Source: a virus (Duplodnaviria > Caudoviricetes). Taken from it: a DNA stretch of 58,586 nt. Both the position numbers and the translations under genes were made by a program. Positions 24,165-31,110 of this stretch are shown here, piece by piece. Position 1 is the first letter of the stretch. Each line of letters begins with the position of its first letter. The notes below the pieces were generated by a model. That model did no database searches and was not told the origin of the DNA. It saw only the letters and a program-made list of their open reading frames with translations. The stretch lies in IMG/VR virus record IMGVR_UViG_3300049917_000087, positions 1-58,586 of that record. One strand, written 5' to 3'.

Positions 24165-26555
24165 CTAGTCAAATTTTGGCAAATTGACGATGCGGAAGCA
24201 TCGCCCCTGAAACGTATAAACCTCGCCTATCTTAATCTTGTCCACCTCAACCATATAACCGCTATCGATCAAACTAGATATAGAATCGTCCAGCGCCCGT
24301 TTAGCTCCGTATGGATGCTGCACAAATGAAGCAACACTATATACGCGCATCTGTAGATATTTTCTAGGCACAATGCCATCACGTGGCATATTAGCCGGCA
24401 CGCCATAGCTAGTTGGTACAGGCATAGTCAAATACTCGTGCATCACGTGCAATAGCTTTTTCTCGCGGCTTCCGTCACCTTGCCCAACCTCGCCCGCTGC
24501 CATCTTTCGTTGCATTAGTGCAATGTCACGTCGTATAAGATCAAGCGCCCACTGCACGTGATGCACGCATATGCTGGGCAAGGTGTGGTTATCAGCTACT
24601 GCAAGCAATGCAGCTACCCGCGCCATCTTCAAATGCGCGCGATTCCACATTTGTCTATATGCTTCGTCTTTGCTGCTATTTATTTGCGCGTCGCATTCGC
24701 TATCAAAAGCGTTCATTAGTTCCGCGGATGCGGCATCGCGCATTACAGGCGTCGTTTTCATTTCGCCTATATTCGATGTGGCGTGAAAGCACATGCCCTG
24801 TAGATAATTAGACAAAGCGTTATCAGGAATCAAATTCTGATATACATTTGCCGCCGGCCTTTCACCTTCATATTCAACGATGTTGAAACGACTAAGAAAG
24901 CCGTCTTCCATCATTGATTCACTCAAGCACGAATAAAGCGTATCTGGCGTTGTCTCACCTATCATTGAAAAAGCAACACCGCTAATGCTCGCTACATTGT
25001 TATCTTTATTGCTATACTGAACTCCGCCGACTATGCTAGCTGGGCCTGATTTTTGATATAGATTCGTCATCACTGTTCGCAATGACTGCATCGGGCCTTC
25101 TACCTGCCTAGCTGCTAGTCTTTGCAGCTTTCGTCCCCATTCACCGGACACGTTCAGAAAGCTACTCTGCGCAGCACATGCCTTAGCTAAAGCCGGTCCG
25201 CTAGCGTAGTCATTGAAGTTTATGAAGTTTTCTGCATGTGGCGCACCTTCGCGAAGCCTGTGTGTTAATGCGGCTAAGCCACTATGCATAGCCTCTTTGC
25301 CTACACCGCTTCTAGCCACAAGGATGATATATAGGTTCAGGCCGCTACCTGGAATTGTCCAGGCTTTGCCGCATACGCCAGCAAACCAGCCTAGCGCAGC
25401 TACGATAGCGACTTCACGCACCGGCCTCGGCGCAGAGTGGAATATGAACTTAGCGACTTCGCCGACAGCGCCCGGGGGCCAGGGCAGGCCGCCTTCCGGC
25501 ACAGGTGGCGGCACAGGCACCGGGGGCTCAACGATCACCGGCAATACCGGTGGCGGTGTTCCCTGTAACGTCGCAATGTGCTGCGCAGCTAATTGCCGCA
25601 AATGCGGAGTTACCGCAGATGGCACAGCTTCCTCCGGTGCCTGCAAACGCTTCACAAGTGCAGCCGATTGACCCTGCAATCGCGCTATCGCGTCGTCTTC
25701 GTTCTTTTGACGAGTGCGTATAAGACGCAGCGTGTTATTCAAGTATTTATCGTTTTTAAGTGCTTTCTCGCGTGCACCTAATTCGCTATGCCTAAACAAT
25801 CTTCTGCATTGCTCGTTACTTGTCGAATAAAAAGTAAGCATCGACATTAACGATAGATCCGCTTCTGATTGACTGGGATATCCCATATCGTGCCAATCGC
25901 CGCGCCACAGCTTCCTAAACTTTTCGGCATTATCGGCGTGCCAAGCCTTGTGCATTATCTCGTCGTCAGTCGCGGCTTGTGTAGATTCAACTAGTTCTGC
26001 CGCATCTATGCTGCACATTTGCAGCACCATGTTATTTAGATAGCTTTGCCGGTCTTCAATTGGCAAATCAAGAATTACATTCCCGGTGCAAGCTATAAAG
26101 CGTTCCTGGCTGTATATAGCTACCGGATCGCGCTGCCGACCTTTACCTATCTTTCCCTTAACCCACGTATGGGCGCCTATGCCGCTTTGACTAAACTCTG
26201 TGTAACTTTGCAACTTATCCGCAATACGCTTGCATAGTTCAAAGTCTTCAGGCGTTGACCATTTGTCAGGGTCATTAGGCTTGTTCTGCGCCGTATATAG
26301 GTCGAAGTCAATGCACGTATACGGATCGCTTGCGTCCAGGCAATAACCTAAACCGTATCCAATACGTTGCGCCGCTTCTTTCGCTATATCGAACGCTAGC
26401 CATGTGGTGCTATCGGTGCTGCTGCCGAGAATAGGCCGACCATGCCGCAAAGTCGTTGGGACTTTGAAGGCGCCTTCGGCATCCGGTCCAGCCAACAGCC
26501 ATTGCGGACGTTCCCGCAACCCGACCGGCAGGCGATCCCATGCGGGGACTGTCAT
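24165..26555 (-). CDS. Primase-helicase (AEP primase + DUF3987-like ATPase)
   Basis: CIDFD, YTEFSQSG.GAH, SQSEAD, ARSGVGKE, GFLSRF. Confidence 0.88.
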   Translation of the reverse strand: MTVPAWDRLPVGLRERPQWLLAGPDAEGAFKVPTTLRHGRPILGSSTDSTTWLAFDIAKEAAQRIGYGLGYCLDASDPYTCIDFDLYTAQNKPNDPDKWSTPEDFELCKRIADKLQSYTEFSQSGIGAHTWVKGKIGKGRQRDPVAIYSQERFIACTGNVILDLPIEDRQSYLNNMVLQMCSIDAAELVESTQAATDDEIMHKAWHADNAEKFRKLWRGDWHDMGYPSQSEADLSLMSMLTFYSTSNEQCRRLFRHSELGAREKALKNDKYLNNTLRLIRTRQKNEDDAIARLQGQSAALVKRLQAPEEAVPSAVTPHLRQLAAQHIATLQGTPPPVLPVIVEPPVPVPPPVPEGGLPWPPGAVGEVAKFIFHSAPRPVREVAIVAALGWFAGVCGKAWTIPGSGLNLYIILVARSGVGKEAMHSGLAALTHRLREGAPHAENFINFNDYASGPALAKACAAQSSFLNVSGEWGRKLQRLAARQVEGPMQSLRTVMTNLYQKSGPASIVGGVQYSNKDNNVASISGVAFSMIGETTPDTLYSCLSESMMEDGFLSRFNIVEYEGERPAANVYQNLIPDNALSNYLQGMCFHATSNIGEMKTTPVMRDAASAELMNAFDSECDAQINSSKDEAYRQMWNRAHLKMARVAALLAVADNHTLPSICVHHVQWALDLIRRDIALMQRKMAAGEVGQGDGSREKKLLHVMHEYLTMPVPTSYGVPANMPRDGIVPRKYLQMRVYSVASFVQHPYGAKRALDDSISSLIDSGYMVEVDKIKIGEVYTFQGRCFRIVNLPKFD

Positions 26556-26851
26556 GCGGCATCAACATCCGATGCCGCGATGCAGCGATAAGACGTGATG
26601 CGCCGCCGCGCTGCCAGGATCGCGCCCCACGCCATGAGGTAAGGCGTAACCGCTTGTCGCTCCCAAATCATGATTGTGCAATCGTTCACGCGTATGGGCT
26701 CCGGTAACGCCCCCCTGCGCCGGGCCGCCAACACGGATGTTCGCGTCACGCCCAGCGTTTGACACACCTCGCTAGAAGTGACGTAGGCGGCCACGAAACG
26801 GGCCTGTGCGCTGTTTTCGGCCGGAGGCTGCAGGGCAAGGGTGTCGGACAT
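26552..26851 (-). CDS. Excisionase/AlpA-like HTH protein
   Basis: YVTSSEVCQTLGVTRTSV...G.LPEPI...W pattern; start inferred. Confidence 0.7.
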   Translation of the reverse strand: MSDTLALQPPAENSAQARFVAAYVTSSEVCQTLGVTRTSVLAARRRGALPEPIRVNDCTIMIWERQAVTPYLMAWGAILAARRRITSYRCIAASDVDAA

Positions 26852-26911
26852 AGGCGGGACGCTCCAAAGGGACGCCAGCGTAACCGATCCCCTGCGGCTC
26901 TGCAACGTGCG

Positions 26912-27463
26912 TTACGTTCCGGATGGAAACGCCAACCCGCGCGATTCCGCCATTTTCTGCAGATTCGCTAATTGCGTTTCAAGACGGGCCAGTTCAAACT
27001 TATTTTGACGTAGTGCATTTTTTGTTTTATCGATGTAATTTAATAAAGTACCGTCGTTCATATCCGGATTTGTTCCGGATTTTAGAAACTTCTGCGAATT
27101 TCTAAATCTTTCTTGAGCTTCGCGATTTAGCCGTTTCCGCCGCTCTGTTGGATCTTCGGAAGCGTTAACCACATTCTTCGGAGGTCGCCCACGTTTGACG
27201 GGCGCGTTAGCTATATCCTGATTAGACCAGAATAGCGTATTTTGATACCAACGCGCAAATGTAGTAGCTAAACTCTCATACATTAGCGGAACAGGCGCCG
27301 TATCTTTTGGTGGGCGGCCTTCTATCGTATCGTCGTAACTGGGCCACTCTTCACGGGGTGGCGTAGGTGTGCCACCACTGTGTATACGCCATTCGGTGGG
27401 ACAGAGGATCGTGCCGTCAGGTAGGACAGGCCACGGGCGAAAGGATGGGGTGATTTGTGCCAT
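26912..27463 (-). CDS. AT-hook + bZIP-like basic region + coiled-coil protein
   Basis: KRGRPPK (90-96), RRKRLNREAQERFR (108-121), heptads I144/L151/L158/L165. Confidence 0.7.
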   Translation of the reverse strand: MAQITPSFRPWPVLPDGTILCPTEWRIHSGGTPTPPREEWPSYDDTIEGRPPKDTAPVPLMYESLATTFARWYQNTLFWSNQDIANAPVKRGRPPKNVVNASEDPTERRKRLNREAQERFRNSQKFLKSGTNPDMNDGTLLNYIDKTKNALRQNKFELARLETQLANLQKMAESRGLAFPSGT

Positions 27464-27468
27464 GCCTT

Positions 27469-27497
27469 ACTTTAACACAAGGCGTAAGCATTGTCAA
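27469..27497 (-). promoter_or_regulatory. sigma70 promoter, probably giving a leaderless transcript
   Basis: TTGACA-N17-TAAAGT, then only 5 nt before ATG 27463. Confidence 0.75.
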
Positions 27498-27559
27498 TTA
27501 GGCTAATAACAATTAGGCGCAATCTTAATAAATAAAACTTTCCTAGGCGTTCCCTAATA

Positions 27560-27730
27560 GATTACACCTTTACGCGTAATTACAATTACGCTAATTACAT
27601 TACGTGTCATGCTTACGTGCCATAAACTTACTCGTAATTACAATTACGTGTAATGATGACCGTAACGTAATTGCTTATGTTTCCTGTCTTGTATTATATA
27701 ATTATTTTATTAATTTATATACTATATACA
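27560..27730. repeat. TTAC/GTAA palindrome array plus AT-rich tract; candidate replication origin or switch
   Basis: TTAC-NN-GTAA at 27570, 27628, 27644; CGTAATTACAATTACG at 27575 and 27633; near-pure A/T run at ~27692-27728. Confidence 0.75.
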
Positions 27731-27866
27731 GAGACAAGTGCACTGTAATGGTGCAATTATGTCCGCTATAGCAACGGCAGCTTTAATGATGACAGTCAAG
27801 CTAACGATAACTAAGTGTCGATAGCGTTTACAGGACCAGAATCGCTAAATTATTCACGCAAATCAC

Positions 27867-27895
27867 TTGACAGTCCGCCGTGTTGTGGTTATAGT
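27867..27895 (+). promoter_or_regulatory. sigma70 promoter opening the rightward arm
   Basis: TTGACA-N17-TATAGT. Confidence 0.85.
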
Positions 27896-27922
27896 TTAGT
27901 CATCTGTTCAGCAAGGGGCGCT

Positions 27923-28147
27923 ATGTCAAGTGATCCGAACGAGCTAAGGCATGTGCTTAAAGTCAACTGCACATATAAAATTCCGTCGCGCGTCGGCCTG
28001 CCTTACGGTGGACGCTACGCTATGTTTGTTGGTGAAAGTACGGCAAATTTTCATTTTAGGTTGCGTACGGACGCAAACGGTATACACGAAGTAGAGTTTG
28101 TAATCAATAAGAAAGTTGGTGACGGTTACTTTGTTGTCAACAGCTAA
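27923..28147 (+). CDS. Hypothetical early protein
   Basis: AAGGGG RBS before ATG 27923. Confidence 0.65.
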   Translation: MSSDPNELRHVLKVNCTYKIPSRVGLPYGGRYAMFVGESTANFHFRLRTDANGIHEVEFVINKKVGDGYFVVNS

Positions 28148-30258: not shown

Positions 30259-30345
30259 GCCCGGGTGACGGAATAGGCAGACGTAACGGACTTAAAATCC
30301 GTTGTCCTTCGGGGCGTACCGGTTCGATCCCGGTTCCGGGCACCA
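30259..30345 (+). tRNA. tRNA-Leu(TAA)
   Basis: Acceptor GCCCGGG/TCCGGGC, anticodon arm ACGGA-CTTAAAA-TCCGT, long variable arm, GGTTCGATCC, encoded CCA. Confidence 0.95.
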
Positions 30346-30445
30346 GCTACACAGAGCACTGCGCTTAAGCAAATGCACATTGGCTGCAGCGCCGATGCGG
30401 CCCTGAGTCGTAAATCAGGGCATCCCTTAACTACGAAAGGCGAAG

Positions 30446-30796
30446 ATGGCGGCAAAGATCACTGTACAGCTTCACATCGGTGTCACAACGCAAGAAGCGC
30501 CGGTAGGCCAAACTTACGGGGGACTGGTTGTGAGCTTGGAAGACGTGAACGGTACGCAGACGCGCGAAATCGGTCCGGACGTGTTGCCCGAAGTCGATGA
30601 AGGCGGCAATGCCGAATTTATCGTTACGTTTGACGATGTGCAATCCGGCGCATCGGTCACGTGCAACGTTTCGGCCATCGATGTAACCGGCGCAGAACTA
30701 GGCATGTCGGTATCGCATACCGTGGTGCTTGACGAGGTGCCGGATAACATCGAACGTCCCTATTATCAGCCGTCGTTCCTGTTCATCAAAGTTTAA
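30446..30796 (+). CDS. Acidic beta-rich protein inside the tRNA cluster
   Basis: 116 aa, AAAGG RBS. Confidence 0.7.
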   Translation: MAAKITVQLHIGVTTQEAPVGQTYGGLVVSLEDVNGTQTREIGPDVLPEVDEGGNAEFIVTFDDVQSGASVTCNVSAIDVTGAELGMSVSHTVVLDEVPDNIERPYYQPSFLFIKV

Positions 30797-30953
30797 GACG
30801 CATTACTGCGTATCGGCGTGCAATGCCCGTATCCCTGTATCGGTCAAGACATTGTGCGTATCGTCAGGTGGAAACAACCCGCAAGGGCTTAGCTTTGCGA
30901 AGCTCGTTCGTTACAATAGCCTGCAATGAGGTGCGAAGCCTCTTTATACACTT

Positions 30954-31030
30954 GGGCCGTTAGCTTAACTGGTTAAAGCAGCGAACTCATAATTCGTTGA
31001 GTGCAGGTTCGATCCCTGCACGGCCTACCA
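30954..31030 (+). tRNA. tRNA(CAT), probably Ile2 rather than Met
   Basis: GCGAA-CTCATAA-TTCGT arm; C4-G69 and C5-G68 pairs are TilS determinants; encoded CCA. Confidence 0.9.
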
Positions 31031-31034
31031 ATTT

Positions 31035-31110
31035 GCGCCCGTAGCTCAGAGGATAGAGCACCTGCTTTCTAAGCTGTGGGGCGGCGGTTCGAGTCCGTCC
31101 GGGCGCACCA
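31035..31110 (+). tRNA. tRNA-Arg(TCT) with weak anticodon stem
   Basis: GCGCCCG/CGGGCGC acceptor, canonical D and T arms, loop TTTCTAA, encoded CCA. Confidence 0.85.

Follow-up and report, generated by a model that had tools for sequence, protein, structure and literature searches.

A putative single-basic-helix DNA-binding protein encoded beside arrays of ATTAC sites in tailed-phage genomes

In the 58,586-bp IMG/VR virus record IMGVR_UViG_3300049917_000087 (the whole record of this virus, about 97% complete, was analysed and is hereafter called the window), two divergent gene arms start from one intergenic region of 459 bp (27464-27922), in which a dense array of short ATTAC sites lies upstream of the gene for a 183-aa protein carrying an AT-hook-like sequence and a basic segment. 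Which protein reads these sites, and to what end, is the question that the locus raises. An earlier note, made from the letters of this DNA alone, had proposed that the protein is a eukaryote-like basic leucine zipper (bZIP) protein and that its binding unit is TTAC-N2-GTAA. In the reading that we favour, and to which we give about an even chance, the 183-aa protein binds DNA and organises the origin and early-promoter region, and would read the ATTAC units by a basic helix, the AT-hook aiding where it is present. The gene and array together probably mark a replication origin or early control region, as their layout suggests.

The ATTAC array and the protein encoded beside it

The array (27561-27671) comprises 11 ATTAC cores (15 TTAC/GTAA) in both orientations, with the consensus (A/C)ATTAC(G/A). 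Over the genome as a whole ATTAC occurs at chance frequency (111 copies, 109.9 expected), yet 11 copies are packed into 27561-27671. When the segment 27480-27680 was compared with 2000 first-order Markov simulations, it held 16 TTAC (counted as TTAC/GTAA) against 4.3 expected, 10 TTACG against 1.4 and 8 AATTAC against 0.46, and none of the simulations reached any of the three observed counts. Of the 30 AATTAC of the genome, eight fall in the 459 bp between the two arms; nine TTACG are found in the densest 200-bp windows, as compared to at most three in windows outside the region; and, pure A/T words aside, ATTAC (12) and CGTAA (10) are the most strongly enriched. This TTAC/ATTAC cluster is the sole such cluster in the 58.6-kb genome. 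The five DNA sites listed in the earlier note were all recovered (TTACGCGTAA at 27570, TTACGTGTCA at 27600, TTACGTGCCA at 27613, TTACTCGTAA at 27628 and TTACGTGTAA at 27644), together with the A/T tract that it had placed beyond them, which is almost pure A/T at 27690-27729. Alternatively, and equally well, the array may be parsed into two direct repeats of 21 bp (27570-27590; 27628-27648) that both contain the 16-bp palindrome CGTAATT-AC-AATTACG; GTAATTAC occurs twice in the window.

The gene for the 183-aa protein (26912-27463, minus strand) is the first gene of the leftward arm and will be called the head gene. Its homologues align from M1. The recorded automatic gene call, P0001, gives 123 aa from M61 (26912-27283) and is truncated; the 183-aa start is the right one because homologues conserve residues 1-60 (MAxLP.., PPREEWPxY), and the N-terminal blocks PPREEWPxY and YWAxQD are conserved as well in the alignment A4 of ten sequences. 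The protein contains KRGRPPK, RRKRLNREAQERFR and, towards its C terminus, a predicted heptad helix, and every residue singled out beforehand is in place (K90-R-G-R-P-P-K96, R108-RKRLNREAQERFR-121, I144, L151, L158, L161, L165 and L168). A roughly 85-aa N-terminal domain unrelated to bZIP is followed by the AT-hook-like K90-RGRPP-K96 (27176-27196, minus strand), which matches Pfam AT_hook (PF02178) with E 0.017 and 15.4 bits, below the cut-off of 17.4, and by a predicted basic recognition helix, the module E103-R121 (E-D-P-T-E-R-R-K-R-L-N-R-E-A-Q-E-R-F-R; 27101-27157, minus strand), supported by the columns of a 23-sequence alignment, by hhalign and by profile matches in the PDB. Residues 122-139 (27047-27100, minus strand), with G130, P133 and G138, form a putative hinge, and residues 140-172 (26948-27046, minus strand) a predicted C-terminal amphipathic helix of four heptads, with I144, L151, L158 and L165 at positions a and T147, N154, L161 and L168 at positions d, six of these eight being hydrophobic. 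A comparable heptad window was found in eight of ten members and none in the other two. Fold, hinge and self-association are predictions made from sequence.

The family to which the protein belongs is small, has no name and is known from phage contigs alone. HMMER searches over 1.84 billion representatives returned just four relatives beyond the window's own truncated gene call, and a profile search of 5.8 billion proteins returned eight; the names of the relatives were uninformative, two being labelled "hypothetical protein" by their source and the others bearing none. Within the ten sequences of A4, E115, R119, F/W120 and R121 are kept in all, and N113, A116, Q117 and the G-R-P of the AT-hook in nine. 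The pattern N-x2-A-Q-x2-[FW]-R and the G-R-P pointed out in the earlier note are therefore kept in nine to ten of ten homologues, and a lack of N113, A116, Q117, F120 and R121 among homologues, by which that note had proposed to refute its own claim, is not what we found. Phage and plasmid collections queried with the region or the protein gave no match, the window protein had no match in PHROGs below E 0.1, and its homologue P0007 gave no lead in the ESM Atlas (scores ≤0.84, TM ≤0.32). Of two scans of JGI metagenomes the first gave nothing and the second one locus, L040, and a scan of GTDB genomes gave 29 pattern matches with no relative among them. A literature search, to which supplementary files that may hold more were external, found no description of the family or of ATTAC arrays, and the genes at the head of the arm are hypothetical in the records of the cultured phages NP1, DoCa3 and MMDA13.

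Recurrence of the module and of the gene-array pair

The basic helix is more widespread than the family. In NP1-type phages the positional equivalent of the head protein (phrog_20983, with no function assigned) has only the basic stretch KRARQNREAQRR in common with the window protein, and when the two sub-families were compared by hhalign, the match (27 columns, probability 93.6%, E 2e-7) was limited to the basic module. A third group, with R-L-N-[RK]-E-[RG]-V-x-R-[HF]-R, comprises L026, L027, L029/30, L032, L049/50 and gp53 of the cultured Sphingomonas phage MMDA13. Aligned together in 23 sequences (A5), the modules display the frame (N/L)-P-(G/N)-E-(T/S)-x3-(R/K)-x2-R-L-N-R-E-x3-R-x-R, in which N is kept in 20, R(+1) in 21, E(+2) in 23, R(+6) in 20, an aromatic residue or His(+7) in 19 and R(+8) in 21. 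Searching the 5.8 billion proteins with the module, 8000 candidates being scored, yielded 36 phage-like clusters without informative names, most of them of 206-238 aa. The module was also encountered as the C-terminal tail, and sole extra domain, of an HNH_3 endonuclease of 147 aa (P0038), and after an unrelated N-terminal domain in a metagenome ORF of 152 aa (L040, 1620-2078). In homing endonucleases the C-terminal tail is normally the position of the DNA-binding domain. Because it occurs on these two unrelated proteins, the module can be described as a portable and mobile unit, found where DNA-binding extensions are usual.

We compared 35 loci found via the primase and further ones found via head proteins, and surveyed 38 loci and the window for clusters of at least five ATTAC per 250 bp. 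Such clusters occurred only in the window (12), L004/L005 (6), L026 (5), L027 (5), L029/L030 (9) and L032 (8), all other loci having at most four ATTAC per 250 bp. Each cluster lies directly upstream of a head gene encoding R-L-N-[RK]-E-x3-R-[FWH]-R and ends about 80-100 bp before it. In the 400 bp upstream of the gene, observed and expected numbers of ATTAC were 12 and 2.4 in the window, 6 and 2.1 in L005, 6 and 1.2 in L026, 9 and 1.3 in L029, and 8 and 1.1 in L032; of 1000 local Markov simulations, the observed count was reached by none for the window, L029 and L032, by one for L026 and by 14 for L005. Phage MMDA13, the gp53 of which carries RMNRERVARHR, has eight CATTAC in a 150-bp stretch that stops 82 bp short of the gene. 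Six lineages in total have a TTAC-core array immediately upstream of this gene; the earlier note had proposed to look for such arrays beside homologues in related phages.

The cross-lineage consensus is (C/A)ATTAC(A/G), and in an upstream alignment of four phages (67% identical overall) the ATTAC cores are invariant columns. A composite, ATTACATTAC, which occurs once in the window, inside the array, is also found inside the arrays of L026/27, L029/30 and MMDA13; against these four arrays stands just one further copy in 357 kb of loci. Spacing and orientation vary irregularly across lineages, direct repeats lying at distances of 5 and 8 bp and inverted ones being separated by N1, N2 or N4. TTAC-N2-GTAA, the unit of the earlier note, is present three times in the window and in none of six other arrays examined, and abutting half-sites, TTACGTAA, are absent from the window array and from the same six. 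Because TTAC-N2-GTAA is not conserved and TTACGTAA never occurs, the conserved unit is the half-site, free in spacing and orientation, and such a unit fits a hinge-tethered reader better than a rigid dimer.

Other repeats were noticed in the same upstream regions. The tightest packing of sites was seen in L032, where an 8-bp unit, CCATTACA, stands in three head-to-tail copies at 1056-1079. L050 has three to four tandem copies of GCAGCACCCC at about 1040-1075, upstream of a head gene encoding G-R-P and RLNRERVARHR. In MMDA13 (L041) a non-coding region of 1186 bp holds two different arrays (294-510 and 1249-1398), and the six to seven copies of GGTTAACG near gp54 correspond to the 12-bp repeat described in this phage's paper (PMC7472734), the accessible text of which mentions that repeat alone and not the CATTAC array. 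The alignment A7 of four phages (L026, L027, L029 and L041) contains an A/T-rich element that does not vary, CTATAGgGgATATTAACAnATTAACA, and a related ...CATATTAACAC.TATATAGAG is conserved in NP1-type phages; the element may be a common unwinding or promoter core of the clade. Its counterpart in the window is an A/T tract with an inverted repeat, at the same relative position and of different sequence.

Affinities of the basic helix

Profiles of the family were compared with 177,635 PDB sequences. Profile A1 placed the bZIP chain 7aw7_D at the top (E 0.0031), followed by Pap1 (1gd2; E 0.25); Pap1 was the sole match of A2 (E 0.36), and in the search with A4 7aw7 and Pap1 came second and third (E 0.046 and 0.1), behind an unrelated glycosyltransferase. 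The entry 7aw7 is named "BZIP domain-containing protein", and in the printed alignment its chain has G-R-K-P shortly before the basic region. Pfam bZIP_1 and bZIP_2 matched eight of the 19 proteins scanned, below threshold and over the basic region only: one of six members of A3 (E 0.47), five of six of A2 (lowest E 0.0057, with 15.5 bits for the tabulated member where the cut-off is 27.6) and two of seven of the L026-type set (E 0.19 and 0.59). The window protein itself had no Pfam bZIP match at E ≤10. In the hidden Markov model searches suggested in the earlier note, AT_hook stopped at 15.4 of 17.4 bits and bZIP never reached its cut-off; it was among the PDB matches that YAP-type bZIPs stood at or near the top. 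Using the broad module profile, the bZIPs were lost and the top PDB match was the STPR protein 5d23_A (E 0.018).

The bZIP signature N-x7-R/K in an Arg/Lys-rich segment is present as N113-x7-R121. A bZIP zipper continues from the basic region with its first Leu 9-10 residues after the invariant Arg; in the window protein G130, P133 and G138 lie between R121 and I144. Pro or Gly follows the basic motif by 4-12 residues in ten of ten members, in a linker of variable length, therefore the basic helix cannot run on into the heptads and the protein is not a canonical bZIP. Both the bZIP membership and the continuous basic-region-to-zipper helix of the earlier note are not supported. STPR proteins, for their part, have at least three tandem 23-residue repeats, and a single copy of the module was found in every protein seen. 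Judged by its residues, the reading head would be a single basic helix of which the first half is STPR-like and the second half resembles the YAP basic region, and we assign it to neither family.

How far each likeness goes can be stated for the known systems. With the YAP/Pap1 bZIPs (Pap1 1gd2, 7aw7, Yap1) the phage helix shares N-x2-A-Q-x2-F-R in an Arg/Lys-rich helix and the TTAC core of its candidate sites; it differs in being phage-encoded, in its Pro/Gly hinge, in its marginal E values (0.003-0.4) and in the lack of abutting TTAC|GTAA palindromes. According to the accessible text of one source, Yap1 binds TTACTAA, usually as (A/C)TTACTAA, and the conserved Asn and Ala of Pap1 touch the first T:A pair (PMC3865217). 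The STPR domain of Bombyx FMBP-1 is described, likewise in accessible text, as a series of helices of ~21 residues, each covering 4 bp of the major groove, which prefer A/T-rich units such as ATAC (native site tttacatagattc) and are stabilised by Glu1, Thr/Ser2, Arg6, Arg9 and Leu10 (PMC4856987). Counterparts of these five positions occur in the phage module as E in 20, T/S/D in 17, R/K in 19, R in 21 and L in 12 of 23 sequences. The likeness to STPR (5d23) lies in these residues, in the stand-alone basic helix and in the short A/T-rich units. STPR proteins differ in carrying 3-7 tandem 23-residue repeats per chain that read DNA mainly by shape; the phage module occurs as one copy, its second half N-R-E-A-Q-x-R-F-R is bZIP-like, and the E value of the match is not significant.

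With AT-hooks of the HMGA type (R-G-R-P) the window protein shares the core K-R-G-R-P-P-K, and the window sites mostly follow AATT (AATTAC eight times); there is a single hook, however, and it is absent from the branch of L026, L029, L032 and MMDA13, which has arrays. Viral and bacterial precedents exist for parts of this picture. The bZIP-like protein Zta of Epstein-Barr virus binds an origin, acting both at promoters and at the lytic origin. Among bacteria, RptR and TodS have been proposed as bZIP-like regulators in the accessible part of one report (PMC12255303), and provide a prokaryotic precedent for the reading of very short sites by splayed basic helices; RptR differs as a compact dimer on one 6-bp palindrome and not on an array. 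A 'bZIP domain protein' is annotated in one Stenotrophomonas phage, as far as the accessible text of its report goes (PMC9025141). That the phage module is a true evolutionary relative of the eukaryotic single-basic-helix readers, uniting a YAP-type basic region with the helix-stabilising frame of STPR, that tailed phages are an unseen prokaryotic reservoir or source of such helices, and that the protein is a hinge-tethered half-site reader coating an iteron origin, is a proposal which, taken as a whole, we consider distinctly unlikely.

Genome setting and candidate readers of the array

The window virus is assigned as a Nipunavirus-like siphophage because its primase-helicase (796 aa) shares 50% identity with gp56 of Pseudomonas phage NP1 and has matches in 395 phage records. 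As the earlier note had stated, the head gene leads the leftward arm: it is followed by the gene for a conserved helix-turn-helix (HTH) protein (26552-26905, minus strand; phrog_11967, with a sub-threshold HTH_17 match) and by that of the primase-helicase (24165-26555, minus strand; phrog_3022, DUF3987, NrS-1 HBD-like), the order of head gene, HTH and primase being the same in L004. The lowest G+C window of the genome (27001-28000; 0.43) covers the divergent intergenic region, and the preceding window (26001-27000) contains the minimum of cumulative GC skew. The A/T tract (27690-27729), which adjoins the array and has an imperfect inverted repeat, CTGTCTTGTAT / ATACAGAGACAAG, on its flanks, forms with that repeat a candidate unwinding element at 27684-27738; as single-stranded DNA the repeat is predicted to fold with -6.6 kcal/mol (z -2.66), a value matched by two of 200 shuffles. 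Consensus scans predicted a leftward sigma-70 promoter (TTGACA, 17-nt spacer, TG-extended TAAAGT; 27469-27497, minus strand), in the spacer of which lies a further TTACG site (27484-27488), and a strong rightward one (TTGACA, 17-nt spacer, TATAGT; 27867-27895, plus strand; 11/12 matches). Rfam gave no match in 27300-28100, and among the sequencing runs listed as containing the stretch there was none of RNA and one of DNA, which may be the source of this DNA.

Several details of this region stand on their own. The leftward -10 (TAAAGT, TG-extended) ends 5 nt short of the ATG, and no usable Shine-Dalgarno sequence is present, AAGG lying 1 nt from the ATG; the mRNA of the window head gene may thus be leaderless. 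In L004 the homologue is preceded by a normal GAAGGA at a distance of 8 nt. The leftward -35 is overlapped by two direct copies of GCCTAATTG (27496-27520, minus strand), another type of repeat, which has TAATT as its core, and TAATT-type repeats without an ATTAC array occur in L033, the head protein of which keeps G-R-P and has a degenerate basic helix (RLRREQAAADR). The rightward promoter is bracketed by an 18-nt inverted repeat, ATCACTTGACAGTCCGCC / GGCGCTATGTCAAGTGAT (27862-27879 / 27917-27934, 83% complementary), one arm of the repeat coinciding with the -35 and its partner with the first rightward gene's start codon; together with a third copy, TGACAGTCAAG (27788-27800), 75 bp upstream of it, this repeat may form an operator set for a different regulator. 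Three tRNA genes (Leu-TAA, Met-CAT and Arg-TCT) lie early in the rightward arm (30259-31110). A 55-aa ORF overlapping the array (27604-27771, plus strand) was discarded as a low-complexity A/T-driven frame, on inspection and with no homology search made, and so was a DnaA-box or IHF-type explanation of the repeats, the repeated word being unlike either consensus, with no scan made. The exact 16-mer CGTAATTACAATTACG had 17 single matches in IMG/VR, none with a module ORF within 1.2 kb, and these were attributed to chance.

The cluster of short sites (27561-27671), the A/T-rich element (27690-27729) and the gene of a putative DNA-binding protein starting at 27463 conform to the pattern of an iteron origin. 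The six lineages have in common an origin-like layout that runs from the A/T tract through the array and a promoter containing an additional site to the genes of the head protein, the HTH protein and the primase-helicase. Because the order of A/T tract, iterons, promoter, gene and primase-helicase is that of an iteron origin, origin organisation together with autoregulation of the leftward early promoter would be the most likely role of the protein. In their element order, iteron-type origins with an autoregulated initiator (lambda O and ori-lambda, iteron plasmids) are comparable to the window. Known iteron initiators use winged-helix or HTH domains on iterons of 17-22 bp; the candidate origin in the window differs in its unit of 6-8 bp and in its candidate reader, a single basic helix.

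That the head protein should read a TTAC site is predicted by its motif, because Yap1 and Pap1 read TTAC and the window protein has N-R-E-A-Q-E-R-F-R. We infer binding, stoichiometry, dimerisation and origin function along the following lines. One basic alpha-helix of roughly 20 residues (E103-R121), coming after the AT-hook (RGRP), would be the reading head; lying in the major groove, it would read 4-5 bp of (A/C)ATTAC(G/A) through the YAP/Pap1 positions N, A/Q, aromatic and R, with the AT-hook occupying the minor groove of the adjacent AATT. The Pro/Gly hinge would let linked heads take units of varied spacing and orientation, and the C-terminal amphipathic helix probably mediates self-association. 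Many copies of the protein would in this way coat the 110-bp array, between the A/T tract and the protein's own promoter.

A number of observations weigh against this reading. The NP1-type phages lack an ATTAC array and have a conserved ATATTAACA-containing A/T element instead; three of them, L009, L010 and L012, have a complete NREAQxR[FYL]R and 0, 3 and 0 ATTAC. L049/L050 have the L026-type helix (NRERVARHR) and only one ATTAC, their TTAC numbering 9 against 3.7 expected (reached in 11 of 1000 simulations) and being mostly CGTTAC, and in L022 and L024 the module is encoded away from the head of the arm and has no array beside it. On the primase tree the array needs three to four changes, array-bearing phages falling in two distant clades. 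Among five independent contrasts the array went the same way in three, the opposite way in none and did not differ in two (p 0.25); loci without upstream DNA (L017, L020, L023, L025 and L028) were omitted from these contrasts and counted as 'none' in one tally on the primase tree. The head proteins of many clade members are without the module, therefore DNA reading by a basic helix is not universal to the head position. No known DNA-binding family is matched with statistical security, the best E being 0.003 and in the PDB only, the Pfam bZIP matches (PF00170 / PF07716) reach 10-16 bits against cut-offs of 22-28, and the best match of the broad module profile is not a bZIP. The GC-skew minimum sits where the direction of transcription switches and is therefore no independent evidence of an origin, and both promoter predictions are consensus matches only.

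The array might be read by another phage protein, either the neighbouring HTH protein or the C-terminal part of the primase-helicase, for which P4 alpha provides a precedent, in which case the basic stretch of the head protein would serve in non-specific DNA or RNA binding or in protein contacts via its conserved C-terminal helices. We regard this as unlikely, though it is the alternative with the most in its favour: the recognition helix of the HTH protein, R-T-[TS]-V-L, is found in the window, L005, L026/27, L029/30 and MMDA13, that is in five of six array lineages, and is different in all array-less loci listed, so that co-occurrence cannot tell which protein reads the array. The presence of R-T-[TS]-V-L in two distant primase clades suggests that array, head gene and HTH gene are exchanged as a cassette. 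The two copies of the 16-bp palindrome in the window have the usual size for an HTH dimer, and this alternative would also account for the relatives whose head proteins are without the module and for L049/L050 and L022/L024, which carry the module without an ATTAC array. A rigid HTH dimer is poorly suited, however, to the irregular spacing and orientation of the sites; L032 has an array and a different HTH helix (RATIV); and the motif of the head protein independently predicts TTAC, in a module that is the sole extra domain on an HNH endonuclease.

That the repeats lack a dedicated phage reader and represent promoter or host-factor architecture, as stacked weak promoters, UP-like elements or sites for bending or nucleoid proteins boosting divergent early transcription, seems to us very unlikely. 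The region is A/T-rich, the array is framed by the two predicted divergent promoters and spans about -60 to -200 relative to the leftward promoter, and ATTACA resembles a -35 hexamer, one ATTACA-17-TATAGT pair being flagged; but sites that are spaced by 5-8 bp and face both ways cannot all be promoters, the array tracks the presence of the module gene, and the core recurs in array-bearing loci with 34% to 49% G+C in the upstream 400 bp. It recurs also in MMDA13, which according to the accessible text of its paper has a 59% G+C genome and infects Sphingomonas (PMC7472734). More doubtful still is a strict YAP/Pap1 homologue binding TTAC-N2-GTAA as a parallel leucine-zipper dimer, with a longer linker explaining the wider spacing, which is the strict version of what the earlier note proposed. 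The conserved N-x7-R with A-Q and F-R, the 7aw7 and Pap1 matches at the top of the PDB searches with the G-R-K-P of 7aw7 before its basic region, and the three TTAC-N2-GTAA of the window combined with a C-terminal helix of four heptads speak for it; opposed to it are sub-threshold Pfam matches confined to profile positions of the basic region, a Pro/Gly linker of varied length in all ten members, two of which have no heptad window, the absence of TTAC-N2-GTAA from the six other arrays examined and of TTACGTAA from all, the preference of the broad module profile for STPR, and, more weakly, the lack of a named bZIP among the 36 module matches, which came from 8000 candidates scored out of 5.8 billion.

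A phage DNA-binding protein paired with iterons is of a known kind; it is the eukaryote-like reading head that is unusual. If the 183-aa protein binds the array, tailed phages would have a DNA-reading head outside the HTH, ribbon-helix-helix (RHH) and winged-helix types: a single basic helix bearing the YAP-type base-contact signature, which is usually taken as a eukaryotic invention. This would bear on the origin of bZIP-like and STPR-like helices. The same pairing would give a first functional handle on the divergent control and origin region of Nipunavirus-like (Queuovirinae-related) siphophages, for which gp53 of Sphingomonas phage vB_StuS_MMDA13, both the phage and its host Sphingomonas turrisvirgatae being in culture, provides a non-pathogenic system for direct tests. 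Short, portable and reading a word of 5-6 bp, the module would then also be an attractive minimal DNA-targeting part.

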